Assembly: GCA_025786725.1 (NCBI GenBank)
Contig: JAHLTZ010000019.1
Coordinates: forward strand, 186,001 to 250,000
Direction of reading: 5' to 3'
DNA: 64,000 bases
Source: Syncephalis fuscata S228
Taxonomy: Eukaryota > Fungi > Zoopagomycota
Part shown: positions 2,725-54,297 of the stretch, piece after piece
Layout of the letters: every line of letters begins with the position of its first letter
How positions within the stretch are numbered: the stretch's first letter is position 1
Notes under the pieces: generated by a model
What the model saw: only the letters and a program-made list of their open reading frames with translations
What the model was told of the DNA's origin: nothing
Database searches by the model: none
Made by a program: the position numbers and the translations under genes

Positions 2725-5507
2725 TACTAAGAATACTTCTTCAAATTGATTGTTTTACGGTTTGTTTTAGTTTGACTATGGTTATTCATCATTTAAAATA
2801 TGCTGAATACTATTAAAATAAGCAAATAGTTATACATTTAATAGTTAGCAAATAAATAAGCATTATCAAAATACTACACAGCTATAGCACTTGTACTATA
2901 ATAGGTCTCAATTTTATTATGCAAACGCTAATTATTCCTAAAATTGCTATTCGCCGTTTTCGGGTCAATCATCATATTATCGAATACAATCGCATAGTCT
3001 TTCAACGATTCCCAGATATCTTGCCACACTAGGTTTTTTGGATTGATATCCTCCATTTTAAGATATCGATAATATTCGTTCCAATCATATTTCTTTGATT
3101 TTAAGCCACCTCCAATCAAAACTGCTATTAAGCGTTTGTTGTATTCATTGATAGACCTTATAGTCCCGCTCAAAGTATAACCATTTGTAGTAGCGACATC
3201 AATGGGATCTTTTGCTGGGCTGGCATTAAGGAAGTTGTAAAAATGCAATTTGTATCCACTTTTGTCTTTATCGACACAAATATCTAGCAACACCGTCAAT
3301 GTGGATATTAGTAAACAACAGCATACTTACCTAGAATATCGAGGTGAGCATACCATCCCCATTCCTTTATAGTGTTTAGTCCTAATCACAGTTCAGTTTA
3401 TAATATACATGGACAATACAAGCTTGTACCTTTTACAATTTTTTGCCATAACGGCAGCATCTCTTTTAAATCATGCTCGCTTTGTTTAGAGTTTTCTTTG
3501 AATTTTTCATTAAAATTGTCGTATGTTTTTTTACACTTGTAGTATGGTACGATATAACAAATGGCGTTACCAAATGTGAATTTCTTTTGAGGTACGGCAA
3601 ACGAGATACTATGATCCTCACTATGTATCGGAGATTGGCCCAGTAGATCCTGTTGATCATAGCATTTGTTAGCTTCGTATATCTATCGTTTACAAAACTT
3701 ACATTGTATAATATAAGTGCATTACTTTTTGTATCTGATCTTGGCCCGCACACAAGCCTAATGGGATTGCCATGCTGCGTTCCTGTAATATAATATACAC
3801 CTCCATTTGTGTGTCTAGTGTTTGTCAACTGGATATCATATACGCCAAGTACACTATTTAATGCACTGTTTGCATTCCCCGTGGATTCTATATAAGTAAT
3901 ATCGTTAGTAAAAGCAAAAGAATAGCTTGGTGTAGATACTTGCTAGTGTTTTCGAATAAACTTGATATATCGTTACTGGGTGCGGCTTGAGCGACCGATA
4001 CTAGCATGAGCGTGGTAGCAGCGATAGTAAGAATGGATTTCATCGTAAACATGGCTATGTCAAGGCTCAGTCGTCGAATAAAGGCTGTACTTTCTATGAA
4101 GCTAATGTGCAAGCAAATATGATGTAATGGCTAGACAAACTGACATGCTAAAAATGCGATATATATAGCAAAATATATCATGGGATAGTTTATATGTTTT
4201 TGTAAACTGGAAAAATACAATGTAGGCGTTTCAGTAAAATTGCAAAAAAGCACATGGAATAAACCGAAAGCAGCAATCTTCGTTATTCGAATACGGAATT
4301 TGAAAATACAAATGTTTTGGCGTTGCATTCTTACTTCTATATATACATATATTGAATGGCACAAAATGGATAAAATGTGGCTTATTGTAGTGATACCATT
4401 TTGTATGGCTATTATTCTCTTAAGCATTGATATCAAAAATAACCATATAACAGATGCTGTAAATTCAAGCACAAATTCCAGTAATACACATTACGACTAA
4501 TCAGCGACTGTATAGCTTTGCAACAATATAAATAATTGCGATTAAAACAACCCGTAATTTTAATTTACATTGCACAATGATAGGTCATTATTTAATTTAG
4601 ATTCACGTATACATACAACATGCATAAATAAATTTAAATACCATATAGTTAAGACAAATCAACAGTAGTATACTCCAAAGAATAGGAATAACAAGGCGGC
4701 ATCGAATTGATAACCCACTTGATGAATATCATGTTATGCCATATAAAGACATTACCTGAAACGAGAAAGTTTAAAATTACAGTGGTCATGCTCAGAGAAA
4801 TGGTTTATTACGGCATTGCTTTGAATTGCCGATTTTCAATTCTATTTTTAGTTTAGGTTTAGTTTTCTTTCGCTTTTACATTTTTGCAGTTGTTGTAAAA
4901 CAAATGCTAGTGGAAAAGCTACTTTTATGTTCTGTAGAATAGTTTGTATATTATAGCCTTCTTTAATATTAGACTAGTGCATAATTGAACATACCAACAG
5001 GCACTCAATGTTGTTTACTGCATATCAAACCTTAATACTGCAGCTTGCTAGCTCGGCACTAATTTAGTTTATTTTGGTTTCTATTGTAAAATAAATAAGA
5101 TTTTGAAATGAATGGCTTATTTGAGTATGTCTTTATCTTTTGGTTAATTACATTGATTAAGCCAAATCTACATTAGTTTAACGGTCAGATTAGCATATTG
5201 ATCTATCAAGTATACTATTATACACTGATTGTTTATTGAGTATGCAAATAACTTGGTATACATAATTACAAATAGCCAAATCATTGGTTTAGCTTATTGA
5301 ACTGGTAGTATTTCTAACAACATAATATACATCGCCAATATATATATATATTACTAGTTGATTTATACTAATGTTTATTTCCTAGGCATTCTGACATTTT
5401 TGTAATATGCAAAATTATAATTTCATTATCAGCCTAATAATATCCTGTTATTTATATATGTGTAGGATTATATGGTCGATATAACAATATTTTACCTAAT
5501 ATCAATT
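2725..5507. repeat. Left arm of large inverted repeat (~2.78 kb)
   Basis: Reverse complement matches 13223-15987 along its whole length at roughly 98% identity by eye. Paired ORFs in the track include 2928-3299 vs 15422-15793 and 3466-3828 vs 14893-15255. Outer end is tactaagaatacttcttcaaattga, inner end is tttacctaatatcaatt. Confidence 0.97.
2928..4052 (-). CDS. Secreted kinase-fold (pseudokinase-like) protein, copy A, 5 exons, 306 aa
   Basis: Mirror image of the 14669-15793 gene with all splice sites and the frame intact. Signal peptide MFTMKSILTIAATTLMLVSVAQA. First intron is GC-AG (donor at 3943). Confidence 0.85.
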
Positions 5508-13222: not shown

Positions 13223-15987
13223 AATTGATATTAGGTAAATATTGCTATATCAACCATATAATCCTACACATATATAAATAACAGGATATTATTAGGCTGA
13301 TAATGAAATTATAATTTTGCATATTACAAAAATGTCAGAATGCCTAGGAAATAAACATTAGTATAAATCAACTAGTAATATATATATATATTGGCGATGT
13401 ATATTATGTTGTTAGAAATACTACCAGTTCAATGAGCTAAACCAATAATTTAACTATTTGTAATTATGTATACCAAGTTATTTGCATACTCAATAAACAA
13501 TCAGTGTATAATAGTATACTTGATAGATCAATATGCTAATCTGACCGTTAAACTAATGTAGATTTGGCTTAATCAATGTAATTAACCAAAAGATAAAGAC
13601 ATACTCAAATAAGCCATTCATTTCAAAATCTTATTTATTTTACAATAGAAACCAAAATAAACTAAATTAGTGCCGAGCTAGCAAGCTGCAGTATTAAGGT
13701 TTGATATGCAGTAAACAACATTGAGTGCCTGTTGGTATGTTCAATTATGCACTAGTCTAATATTAAAGAAGGCTATAATATACAAACTATTCTACAGAAC
13801 ATAAAAGTAGCTTTTCCACTAGCAGTTGTTTTACAACAACTGCAAAAATGTAAAAGCGAAAGAAAACTAAACTAAACTAAAAATAGAATTGAAAATCGGC
13901 AATTCAAAGCAATGCCGTAATAACCATTTCTCTGAGCATGACCATTGTAATTTTAACTTTCTCGTTTCAGGTAATGTCTTTATATGGCATAACATGATAT
14001 TCATCAAGCGGGTTATCAATTCATGCCGCCTTGTTATTCTATTCTTTGGAGTAAACTCTGTTGATTTGTCTTAACTATATGGCATTTAAATTTATTTATG
14101 CATGTTGTATGTATACGTGAATCTAAATTAAATAATGACCTATCATTGTGCAATGTAAATTAAAATTACGGGTTGTTTTAATCGCAATTATTTATATTGT
14201 TGCAAAGCTATACAGTCGCTGATTAGCCGTAATGTGTATTACTGGAATTTGTGCTTGGATTTACAGCATCGGTTATATGGTTATTTTTGATATCAATGCT
14301 TAAGAGAATAATAGCCATACAAAATGGTATCACTACAATAAGCCACATTTTATCCATTTTGTGCCATTCAATATATGTATATATAGAAGTAAGAATGCAA
14401 CGCCAAAGCATTTGTATTTTCAAATTCCGTATTCGAATAACAAAGATTGCTGCTTTCGGTTTATTCCATGTGCTTTTTTGCAATTTTGCTGAAACGCCTA
14501 CATTGTATTTTTCCAGTTTACAAAAACATATAACTATCCCATGATATATTTTGCTATATATATCGCATTTTTAGCATGTCAGTTTGTCTAGCCATTACAT
14601 CATATTTGCTTACGCATTAGCTTCATAAAAGTACAGCCTTTATTCGACGACTGAGCCTTGACATAGCCATGTTTACGATGAAATCCATTCTTACTATCGC
14701 TGCTACCACGCTCATGCTAGTATCGGTCGCTCAAGCCGCACCCAGTAACGATATATCAAGTTTATTCGAAAACACTAGCAAGTATCTACACCAAGCTATT
14801 CTTTTGCTTTTACTAACGATATTACTCATATAGAATCCACGGGGAATGCAAACAGTGCATTAAATAGTGTACTTGGCGTATATGATATCCAGTTGACAAA
14901 CACTAGACACACAAATGGAGGTGTATATTATATTACAGGAACGCAGCATGGCAATCCCATTAGGCTTGTGTGCGGGCCAAGATCAGATACAAAAAGTAAT
15001 GCACTTATATTATACAATGTAAGTTTTGTAAACGATAGATATACGAAGCTAACAAATGCTATGATCAACAGGATCTACTGGGCCAATCTCCGATACATAG
15101 TGAGGATCATAGTATCTCGTTTGCCGTACCTCAAAAGAAATTTACATTTGATAGCGCCATTTGTTATATCGTACCATACTACAAGTGTAAAAAGACATAC
15201 GACGATTTTAATGAAAAATTCAAAGAAAACTCTAAACAAAGCGAGCATGATTTAAAAGAGATGCTGCCGTTATGGCAAAAAATTGTAAAAGGTACAAGCT
15301 TGTATTGTCCATGTATATTATAAACTGAACTGTGGTTAGGACTAAACACTATAAAGGAATGGGGATGGTATGCTCACCTCGATATTCTAGGTAAGTATGC
15401 TGTTGTTTACTAATATCCACATTGACGGTGTTGCTAGATATTTGTGTCGATAAAGACAAAAGTGGATACAAATTGCATTTTTACAACTTCCTTAATGCCA
15501 GCCCAGCAAAAGATCCCATTGATGTCGCTACTACAAATGGTTATACTTTGAGCAGGACTATAAGGTCTATCAATAAATACAACAAACGCTTAATAGCAGT
15601 TTTGATTGGAGGTGGCTTAAAATCAAAGAAATATGATTGGAACGAATATTATCGATATCTTAAAATGGAGGATATCAATCCAAAAAACCTAGTGTGGCAA
15701 GATATCTGGGAATCGTTGAAAGACTATGCGATTGTGTTCGACAATATGATGATTGACCCGAAAACGGCGAATAGCAATTTTAGGAATAATTAGCATTTGC
15801 ATAATAAAATTGAGACCTATTATAGTACAAGTGCTATAGCTGTGTAGTATTTTTGATAATGCTTATTTATTTGCTAACTATTAAATGTATAACTATTTGC
15901 TTATTTTAATAGTATTCAGCATATTTTAAATGATGAATAACCATAGTCAAACAGTAAAACAGTCAATTTGAAGAAGTATTCTTAGTA
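13223..15987. repeat. Right arm of large inverted repeat (~2.77 kb)
   Basis: Reverse complement of 2725-5507, differing by scattered transitions, several 1-nt indels and a ~10-nt indel near the outer end. Confidence 0.97.
14669..15793 (+). CDS. Secreted kinase-fold (pseudokinase-like) protein, copy B, 5 exons, 306 aa
   Basis: Exons 14669-14777, 14834-15018, 15072-15291, 15340-15390 and 15438-15793 join into 921 nt with no internal stop. Introns are 47-56 nt, most with a clear ctaac/ctaat-type branch site. Signal peptide followed by segments matching kinase subdomains. Confidence 0.85.
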
Positions 15988-16573: not shown

Positions 16574-18114
16574 TTAAGGCTTAAAGCAATCACTCATTTT
16601 ACTTTGGTAGCTTTGTATCTTTCTTTTCAAATGCATTGCTAAAAGTTCATCATCAATAAATAGATTAAACTCTTGGGAGTAATACCAGGACTGTGTGTCC
16701 ATGTTGCCACTACCAATAATAATTCTATTATCCACAAACATAAACTTGACGTGGGAGCCGTTTTTCGGGTGTTTCGCTAGCTTTGGACTTTCTTTAAAAT
16801 AGGTAAACCAGCAATGGTCTAAACGGCTTTGAAGAAGTGGATTGTTGGCTATTGATTTTTTAAGCAATCTAGCAGCATTTTCATTTGTACCATCCGAGCC
16901 TAGCATGTTACATTAGTTATAAAGAATCTAGGAAATTGCTACTACTAGTACTATTATTATTTACCTATTGCCCAAGTAAGACCTTGTCCAAAGTCAAGCA
17001 TTTTGTACGAAGTAATTAAATCAACTTTTGCACCATTTTCTAGCGCTTTTACCAAAGCATAGCGGCCCACTTTAGTATTAAAGTTTGGCGTTAAAATGTA
17101 GACGCTTTCTCTGGCATTCGTTAAACTTGTGGTCCAAGCAATGGACTGCGGCGTAGATCTATTTAATTTTCCTATACCCGAGTAGGGTGATGAAGCTGTG
17201 ACAATCATTGGAACCATATCCATCGCCTTAACCGGTACAGGATGATTTAGTTTTGGCGGATCTATACCGAGTAATCTGAAGAAATCCATGCGAATCGCCG
17301 TGCTTACCGGACCCTCAAGCTGTATACCTAGCTCGAGTGCCGCTTCCGAGTCGACGTTCTTCGAGCCGATACATGACCAAGTTCCGTCGACGGCAATATT
17401 TTTCGAATGGATACTGCCCATTGGCCAATTGTGAAAATTGAAAACCTTTAAATTAACATTAGGAATTCTTTGTTTGGGCGGCAAACGAAGTACGTCTGGA
17501 TCAAGTGAATGAACACCATTAAGCATATTGCCTTTCTTAACTTTACTCATATCTAGCGAAGGAAAGAAAGTATTGAATGTTGTAGTATCGATAAGCAGAT
17601 AAAACTCAATGGGCGGCAAATCCTTGTCGGCATTATCGTTGATGTAGCGAATAGCTCTACTAATTTCCTTGGCACAAGAGCTTTTTGGGTCGTAAAAATA
17701 AGTTTGTATAACTACTTCCTTTTTGGCTTTTTTAATTGTATCGGCGTAAATATCTCGGCACACATCATCCATGGGGCTGTAACCGACAGAAGTCTTTTTT
17801 ACCCTACCAGCTGTGGCGATGTATTCGGGTGGAGTAGTAAGAGTATCTGGGTGCTGTTTGGCATGTTTCATTATATCATCGTATACCTTTTTTGCTAGTG
17901 GACTAAGAGGACGTGGAAAATTAATACTGCCACTAAATTCTCTATTAAGATATCGAGTATTTTCTGATTGACTAGGCTTTAGTCGTTGTTTATTTGGAAG
18001 TGATCTTGGTACGTCAGGAATTTGTTCCATAGCATTAGTGTGTTGAGGGAGTAGCATAGCGCTTATTAAAAGCGTCATGGTTAACGAAATAGTACCGAAT
18101 TGAAAGTGCTTCAT
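16574..18114 (-). CDS. Signal-peptide-bearing phospholipase D/nuclease superfamily protein (two HKD motifs), 491 aa
   Basis: HSKNIAVDG..IGSKN and HVKFMFVDN..IGSGNMDTQSW..SQE motifs. Hydrophobic N-terminus MKHFQFGTISLTMTLLISAMLLPQHTNA. A single intron 16900-16964 joins the two ORFs in frame. Confidence 0.9.
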
Positions 18115-18742
18115 TTTTAAAACATTAAGTGGTATAATAATATAAAATGAATCACAATTAATAGCGATGTTTGTTCGCTATTTAATCATCAAATAGCTGT
18201 TTCTAAATGGTTGCTATAGTTAGTGGAATAAGTTGTATAAATATTGTAATATTTAAGCAGTTAAATTGACGAGGCACAGGGAAATAAGGAAGAAAAATAA
18301 AATAGATCAAATCCGTCATTTATTTGCTTCAAGCGTATTTATGAATAAATAATGCATTACCATTTCAAAATCAAGTCCAATGCCTGTTTAAGCCTTTATT
18401 GCCATTTGCATCTGTTGTCACGTTTTGAACATCAAAATAGGCAATCTAAAACCTCCGCTTCTTTGTGTTTGAAAAACAAATTTATATTTATTCAAATCTC
18501 ATTTAGAAAACGTGCACTCTTTCCTCCAATGACTAATCCGTTTCGTAAATAGAAAGAATAAACGTTTTAACTAGAGCTTATAAGCATTTCTAGAACTATT
18601 AAATTTATCAAAAGAAAAATATGAACAAATCGTATGCTAATGCCTATACAAACTTGTACAGCCACCTATAAGGTGCTTTTAATGTGTAAAATACGCCGTG
18701 TCTATTTTACATGCTATCTGTAGCACTATCCTATGGTCTTCA

Positions 18743-47046: not shown

Positions 47047-52836
<5,790 letters not shown>

Positions 52837-54297
52837 CGCGTAAAAATAGATGAGTGGTAAAGATGATGAAACAGGTGGTAGCCAATTGTCAATGTTGCAG
52901 TAGCATACAATGCTCAACAACTAAACTATGTCCTCACTCACCACACGCACAATTGTTACACACACACACACTAAATATTGAATAAAAGCGATAATAATAG
53001 TGTGTGTATGTAGTTTGATGTGTATTATAGTGTGGAGGTGGTGCTACTGCTACTGTTACTGTTGTTATTGTTATGGTCGTTGTTGTTGTTGCTACTGCTG
53101 CTGCTTCCGTCGTCGTTGTTGTTGCTGTTGTTGCTATTGCTGTTGTTGCAACTATTGTTAACGATAATAGTGGTAATAGCAGTAGTAACGGCAGCAAGGC
53201 AGTAATAGTAGTAATAGTAGTAATAGTAGCTTGCGTATGTAGAGAAAGAAAGGATGACGAGCGAATAAGAGAAAGAGACAAAGACACGATTCAATAGTCG
53301 TCTCGCTTAAGCTACTATAACTTCAACTGCAACAACAATAATAATAATAAAACAACAACAACAAAACGTTACTGAGGCGCGTGTCAAAATCAGGCCAGTA
53401 GGCCCATACACTAACCGCGCGCACGTACACGTATCAAAAATAACGATGAACTATGCACGGATGCGATGAGTGCAGTAAGAGAGATGATGAAATAGAACCG
53501 CACTAAATGACACCTGCAAGCGAAAAGGAAAAGGATTGGAAAGTAGTGAAAGTAAGTAAGTAGCGAGGTGCTTCTGCATGCGGGAGTGTGAATAGAAGTG
53601 TGTGTGTGTGTGTGGTGTGCATAGATTGAATGGATATATGCGTACTGTGTATGGTAAAAATGAGTGGTGGCTATATGCGTACTCTCTGGGTGTGTGGGTG
53701 TGTGGTTAATAATTTTAGATAGTTTGTAGGAGATGAGAACCAATAACTTTTTCGTAGGTCGCCTTTCTCCTTGCTCTAATTCGTTCCTGTTATTATAATG
53801 TTGAACATCATTCATTCATCCACTCAGTCATGTTTACATTCATTTCTCCCCTATTTTACTACTTGTTCTTCTCCATACGGGTATTGGCTTTCTTTATCTT
53901 TCTATTCCATTCTCCTTCTATTCCCCTTCAATTGATATACGTGACTTCTATTGATCAATTAAGTTAAATACTATGAATAATATAAACAGTCAATATTTAC
54001 ACGCTATTATTAATGATATTATCAGTTAACTAAGCATTATTAGGATGAATATGTACAAGTTGTAGACTATAATAGATTTAAATACAGCACATTAGAAATG
54101 GTATAAAAGGTCTTATAATATATTTAGTATTAAAATTAAATGTTTATCTAGACAGTATTTATATTTGGAAAATAGTACTAGACACTGGATTAATAATATT
54201 CATTTTAATAAAAAAGTGTAAATGATCAAGTTGTATATTGCCATATTTAGTAACAATATAATAGTAATAGTAATATAATAGTAGTGTTACTATTTAA

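Follow-up and report, generated by a model that had tools for sequence, protein, structure and literature searches.

The described systems closest to the gene family reported here are kinase-fold proteins that are secreted, expanded or degenerate. ROP2, ROP8 and ROP5, members of the coccidian rhoptry kinase (ROPK) group, are parasite proteins with a signal peptide, a lineage-specific expansion and a kinase fold without catalytic residues; ROP5 is reported to bind ATP, unlike ROP2 and ROP8, and the polymorphic C-lobe surface of ROP5 binds host IRG (PMC3682881). ROPKs also share a variable C-lobe and a conserved disulfide that joins alphaF (WC motif) to the alphaG-alphaH loop of the C-lobe (PMC3682881). 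Dermatophytes, themselves fungal parasites, have expanded novel SRPKL and PezK kinases, some of them expressed; 33% lack active-site residues, and they are stated to carry no secretion signals and presumed to act inside the fungus (PMC3445971). In the early-diverging Mucorales, expanded CotH proteins are atypical kinases with signal peptides, of which some bind host GRP78 and some are virulence factors (PMC9973265); CotH is reported as absent from Zoopagomycota except Basidiobolus (PMC10079182). Phytophthora CRN8 and microsporidian families are further cases in which a eukaryotic parasite exports kinase domains that belong to expanded families (PMC3426532, PMC5423893). The oomycete CRN8 has a CRN N-terminus and is an active RD kinase (PMC3426532), and in two microsporidian species expanded kinase families are found among the predicted host-exposed proteins (PMC5423893). 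POMK (SgK196) is a disulfide-containing protein of the secretory pathway that lacks the canonical motifs and is active through essential migrated residues, a case where motif loss can mislead about kinase activity (PMC5142810).

The family described here, represented by the 306-aa protein P0002 of Syncephalis fuscata, resembles, or is predicted to resemble, each of these systems in some of the features just listed and differs from each in others. Its predicted disulfides join beta3 to beta5 and the hinge to beta7, whereas the ROPK disulfide lies in the C-lobe; the ROPK-type Cys pair is absent, as P0002 has no Cys after residue 191. The P0002 domain is small, has no activation segment and belongs to a parasite of fungi, whereas ROPKs are coccidian and rhoptry-secreted. 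No sequence link was found. No ROP chain was among the fold-search matches listed, which excludes nothing. Unlike the dermatophyte kinases, family members have signal-peptide-like N-termini and conserved Cys residues; unlike the microsporidian families, they are not detectable with Pfam; and unlike POMK, they have no invariant polar residues. None of 19 members matches the CotH Pfam model PF08757, and CotH of bacteria, like CRN8, is an active kinase. On the features compared, the family does not belong to the ROPK, CotH or CRN groups, although it might work in a ROPK-like way.

An earlier note on this DNA knew of no characterized fungal equivalent. That statement stands for pseudokinases in the full-text literature searched, but needs tempering, because the signal-peptide CotH kinases and the microsporidian kinase families are partial precedents. 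Our full-text search of main texts, which took in few subscription journals, returned no account of the P0002 family, nor of any secreted pseudokinase effector from a fungus. Passages from PMC8778642, PMC4859500 and PMC12394161 offered nothing relevant, and kinases come up 0 times in the main text of a 2026 survey of mycoparasite effectors (PMC13188720). Within the reach of these searches the family is undescribed, and its predicted disulfide design is distinctive.

The gene, its transcript and the duplicated locus

The window, a 64,000-nt stretch of S. fuscata S228 contig JAHLTZ010000019.1, carries the P0002 gene on the + strand, and this gene is real, spliced and expressed. The gene model of the earlier note holds: joining five exons gives an open 306-aa frame that contains every peptide quoted there and is identical to S. 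fuscata KAI9594624.1 (P0002), named 'hypothetical protein'. Exon 1 (14669..14777, aa 1-36) includes the predicted signal peptide (14669-14737, aa 1-23); exon 2 (14834..15018, aa 37-98) encodes the N-terminal helix, beta1-beta3 and alphaC; exon 3 (15072..15291, aa 99-171) encodes beta4-beta5, the hinge, alphaD and alphaE; exon 4 (15340..15390, aa 172-188) encodes the end of alphaE and a shortened catalytic loop; and exon 5 (15438..15793, aa 189-306 and stop) encodes beta7, the NFL motif and a variable helical C-lobe. Introns 2-4 are GT-AG introns of 53, 48 and 47 nt.

The splice junctions are borne out by one 910-nt contig from run X1, which lacks all four introns, covers every junction and has 0 mismatches; X1 is the only listed run that holds the P0002 region, its type ('RNA?') is a guess, and this single contig of a single run may underlie the annotation, so that its independence is not certain. 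The first intron (14778-14833, 56 nt), which the contig skips, is GC-AG. An alternative first intron with a GT donor at 14745 (295 aa) differs from the form in the contig and was rejected. Two short X1 contigs also touch the gene: one matches 64 nt of the signal-peptide exon (14663-14726) with 5 differences and the other 36 nt where the last exon begins (15437-15472) with 3 differences, each then continuing into other sequence, and they are probably transcripts of paralogs.

The gene lies in a recent 2.8-kb inverted duplication. The right arm (13223..15987, +) comprises the gene and its flanks, 1.45 kb upstream and 0.2 kb downstream, and the inverted second copy (2725..5507, -) holds an intact gene at 4052-2928 (-), KAI9594622.1 (P0001); the two arms are 98.1% identical over 2784 columns. 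Because the 910-nt contig spans all 9 exonic sites at which the copies differ, it matches the P0002 copy. Between P0001 and P0002 there are 5 non-synonymous changes in 734 sites and 4 synonymous changes in 184 sites, a ratio of ∼0.3 that rests on very small numbers. There is no sign of positive selection or of excess amino-acid change between the two window copies. The arms flank a CHD1-like chromatin remodeler gene (∼6.5-12.5 kb).

Predicted fold and altered active site

The P0002 family almost certainly adopts a kinase fold, judging from predicted structures. In the AlphaFold2 model of P0002 (pLDDT 74, pTM 0.74), an N-terminal helix precedes an N-lobe of five strands with alphaC; then come the hinge, alphaD, a long alphaE, beta7-beta8 and a C-lobe made of helices, where model confidence is 57-80. 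Compared with solved structures by Foldseek, the model gave only kinase-fold proteins among the matches listed (best E 4.3e-7, TM ∼0.44, identity 8-16%), and all 50 matches listed by the VIA search have the kinase fold, the best being PIM1 (Z 11.2, rmsd 3.9, 194 aligned). The model of the paralog P0020, which is 27% identical to P0002 (pLDDT 68.5, from an input alignment that largely overlaps that of P0002), likewise matches only kinase folds among the solved structures listed (Foldseek E 8.3e-9), with BRAF as the best structural match (Z 13.5, rmsd 4.5, 172 aligned). The fold that the earlier note had assigned by eye is thus reproduced for two paralogs in four fold searches. The nearest named ESM Atlas clusters are APH, Kdo, RIO1 or Pkinase (0.93-0.95).

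Sequence searches do not reveal this relationship. No Pfam model matches P0002 or any of 19 members significantly, kinase models match none of the 19 even at E up to 1, and a sequence search of the PDB gave 0 matches for P0002 and none significant for the family; ribosomal S2 and MamB matches of the family profile are chance (E 0.5 or more). The family is invisible to Pfam and would therefore be missed by domain-based surveys. The window also holds an active-type kinase gene at 47047-52920 (-) with a long low-complexity C-terminal region, which we take to be Yak1/DYRK-like and used only as a register control. In an hhalign comparison with this kinase, NFL aligns with DFG, C191 with the beta7 Leu and V132 with the gatekeeper; this is the expected register from beta5 to DFG, but with a probability of 0.1% the alignment is not significant. 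No kinase group of origin could be assigned because CK1, PIM1, RNase L, BRAF, PKR and RIO tie as best structural matches. A giant-virus origin, at which ESM Atlas rows hinted, is not supported, since viral kinases match no better (7-16% identity, TM up to 0.48).

For the active site we used the PKA residue roles and motif definitions given in PMC5142810. In the family alignment (A2) the site of the beta3 Lys never holds Lys (0/17; Ala 13, Val 3, Gly 1), that of the alphaC Glu holds Glu in one of 17 rows (P0020), and that of the DFG Asp holds no Asp (0/17) and Asn in 11/17. P0002 itself has Val82 (14968-14970, +) at the Lys site (K72), Ala93 (exon 2, +) at the Glu site (E91) and NFL (15485-15493, +, exon 5) in place of DFG (D184), with Leu at the DFG Gly site; one Gly is left in the glycine loop. 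The finer PKA numbering and strand pairings used for these and the following sites are assumed to apply here. In the P0002 model only ∼10 residues separate NFL from the next helix, and P0002 therefore has no recognizable activation segment or APE motif.

The third motif fared differently. The earlier note had all three catalytic motifs lost, which is right for the beta3 Lys and DFG, but HRD probably survives as a relic, H184-L185-D186 (15375-15383, +, exon 4), because this tripeptide aligns with a literal HRD in the paralog P0008. Its Asp is unlikely to act as a catalytic base because the column (D166) has Asn in 5/15 rows, against Asp in 8/15, and because the P0002 loop is one residue short. 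The Asn171 site is Asp in 9/14 members, and a beta2 Lys (Lys71) is present in 9/18 rows, with Thr in P0002. Among columns at least 75% identical, the sole polar ones within the domain are D99 and N222, and no polar residue of the domain is invariant in the alignment. The family is predicted, with good though incomplete confidence, neither to transfer phosphate nor to bind ATP.

Four near-invariant Cys residues are a further feature of the family. Cys83 in beta3 (14971-14973, exon 2), Cys129 in beta5 (15162-15164, exon 3), Cys137 in the hinge (15186-15188, exon 3) and Cys191 in beta7 (15443-15445, exon 5), all on the + strand, are the complete Cys set of P0002 and are retained in 16/17, 16/16, 15/16 and 14/15 non-gap rows. 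By strand register we take C83 to be PKA I73 and C129 to be Y117, which presumably face each other across neighboring strands, and C191 to occupy the Leu173 site under the adenine. Two disulfides, C83-C129 and C137-C191, are accordingly quite likely by prediction; they and the filling of the pocket are derived from strand registers, secondary-structure limits and assumed PKA numbering rather than from model coordinates. Tyr69 (14929-14931, +, exon 2), retained in 16/18 rows, presumably occupies the site of Val57, the adenine-capping Val; strand limits place it opposite the small residue of the Lys site across the beta2-beta3 hairpin in the P0002 and P0020 models. Because the four Cys lie at the predicted disulfide sites and a conserved Tyr replaces the capping Val, the ATP pocket is predicted to be plugged, with a Tyr roof and a disulfide floor. 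Such beta3-beta5 and hinge-beta7 disulfides would seal a kinase pocket, a design for which we found no earlier description. The earlier note had taken ROP5 as its parallel, and ROP5 does serve as precedent for a secreted, duplicated pseudokinase. However, ROP5 binds ATP and the predicted plugged pocket likens the family to ROP2 and ROP8, which are probably the closer analogs.

These residues also bear on two other readings. In one, its members would be cryptic enzymes with a migrated active site, as in POMK, that phosphorylate or nucleotidylate an extracellular glycan, lipid or protein. POMK was itself once classed as a pseudokinase and is an active, disulfide-stabilized kinase of the secretory pathway (PMC5142810). 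The family keeps H and D at HxD, and often pairs an Asp at the Asn171 site with an Asn at the DFG site, which might be a swap; this and the beta2 Lys in half of the rows keep the reading in play, and the structural matches that tie include the minimal kinases RIO, Bud32, WaaP and ArkI. We nonetheless regard a cryptic enzyme as improbable: no polar residue is invariant, the HxD Asp is often Asn, Lys71 is missing from P0002, whose DFG Gly site is Leu, and the lining of the adenine pocket includes a conserved Tyr and a predicted disulfide. In the other reading, the proteins would be allosteric partners or scaffolds for an active secreted Syncephalis kinase, on the model of ROP5 and ROP18, whose interplay is described in PMC3682881. 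P0020 (KAI9593557.1), an outlying paralog encoded outside the window, retains the alphaC Glu and an Asp-containing catalytic loop of canonical length, which points to descent from an active kinase and could make it the best bridge to that origin. No active kinase with a signal peptide occurs among the homologs found, however, and we consider a partner role quite improbable.

Predicted secretion, family diversity and possible role

The N-terminus of P0002 resembles a signal peptide, in line with the earlier note: by hydropathy, the only basis of this call here and for the family, residues 7-18 form an uncharged hydrophobic core with a mean KD of 2.33, followed by a cleavage-like A-Q-A/A site. 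P0002 has no later hydrophobic segment and no transmembrane or GPI-like tail (best 19-mer 0.64). Across the family, 14 of 23 models open with a hydrophobic 12-mer of mean KD at least 2.0, three more carry a signal-like segment but have a mis-set start, and in six the model starts within the domain; the models without a hydrophobic start mostly look N-truncated. Secretion of the family is therefore predicted with high confidence.

Duplication into a family extends well beyond the window. A full HMMER scan of 1.84 billion representatives gave 19 matches at E up to 0.001, every one from Syncephalis (18 S. fuscata, 1 S. plumigaleata). Adding P0002, P0021, P0022 and P0024 brings the family to 22 S. 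fuscata models, spread over 12 contigs told apart by length and in part clustered, with six on one contig, plus the S. plumigaleata member; the gene count is approximate because several models are fragments or adjacent. These searches, of limited reach, returned no relative outside Syncephalis among the 19 matches, and more distant members in other Zoopagales are possible; in metagenome contigs, 169 pattern matches included no relative. A word-indexed homolog search was weak (1, 2 and 4 matches). P0023, an unrelated 52-aa ENA fragment in the cluster of P0014, was left out of counts and tree.

The tree is mostly star-like, with recent pairs and long branches, and resolves little, as 8 of 20 inner branches are strong. 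Such a shape, together with the many members that are short (127-227 aa) or missing segments, would suit a decaying repeat family of little function spread by segmental duplication. We find this highly improbable: both window copies are intact, P0002 is spliced and expressed, the non-synonymous to synonymous ratio is low, and the four Cys and the core residues persist at 21-35% identity and in the second species. Conservation is uneven along the protein. Among eight near-full-length paralogs, identity is highest in the signal peptide (0.68), intermediate in the N-lobe (0.44) and aa 134-210 (0.41) and lowest in the distal C-lobe (0.23), where both the alignment and the model confidence are weaker and where misalignment, faulty gene models or relaxed constraint may account for part of the low values.

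As obligate mycoparasites (PMC6784888, PMC13188720), Syncephalis species would have another fungus as host. The reading we prefer, to which we give somewhat less than an even chance, is that P0002 acts as a secreted, disulfide-stapled pseudokinase with a plugged, nucleotide-free pocket, a binding scaffold on proteins of the host fungus. Because the kinase fold lacks working catalytic residues, binding of host proteins would be a likely mode of action, similar to that of the dead kinases of Toxoplasma. The targets could be host kinase substrates or defense proteins met at the infection interface. Given the rest, there is a slightly better than even chance that the shape is maintained by the conserved core and that differing host targets are bound by the variable distal C-lobe, for which the ROP5 surface that binds IRG is a precedent (PMC3682881). 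An effector role is plausible by analogy. Against the scaffold stand the HxD Asp, the Asn171-site Asp and the beta2 Lys that remain in many members, and the predicted disulfides would fit an extracellular site better than the host cytosol.

The same disulfides would suit a reading in which the protein, secreted and with a dead kinase fold, works for the parasite itself, in the wall, appressorium, adhesive, spore coat or a masking layer, and binds no host protein. Fungal CotH proteins, which have signal peptides and take part in spore formation (PMC9973265), are a parallel, and the lack of positive selection between the two window copies agrees with it. P0002 has no GPI-like or transmembrane tail, however, and the family is a genus-restricted, fast-diverging expansion. 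Expansions of this kind are more typical of host-interaction genes, and a parasite-side role appears rather unlikely.

In its broadest form the host-scaffold reading would have Syncephalis independently evolving a ROPK-like set of ∼20 doubly disulfide-stapled, pocket-sealed secreted pseudokinases that diversify as binding scaffolds directed at signaling or innate defense proteins of the fungal hosts, which we regard as possible but tentative. If true, this would be the first fungal pseudokinase effector family, and for a zoopagalean mycoparasite it would be the first class of effector. Next to nothing is known about how biotrophic mycoparasites overcome the fungi they live on; if the proteins are host-directed, they would represent convergence with apicomplexan rhoptry pseudokinases, and the proteins that they bind would indicate components of fungal innate defense.

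A neighboring gene, at 16574-18177 (-), adjoins the pseudokinase gene tail to tail. It has a signal-peptide-like N-terminus, two PLD-like domains (PF13091, HKD-type) in two open frames and a weak match to the solved phospholipase 7e0m (E 8e-5), and its product is a second candidate secreted factor.
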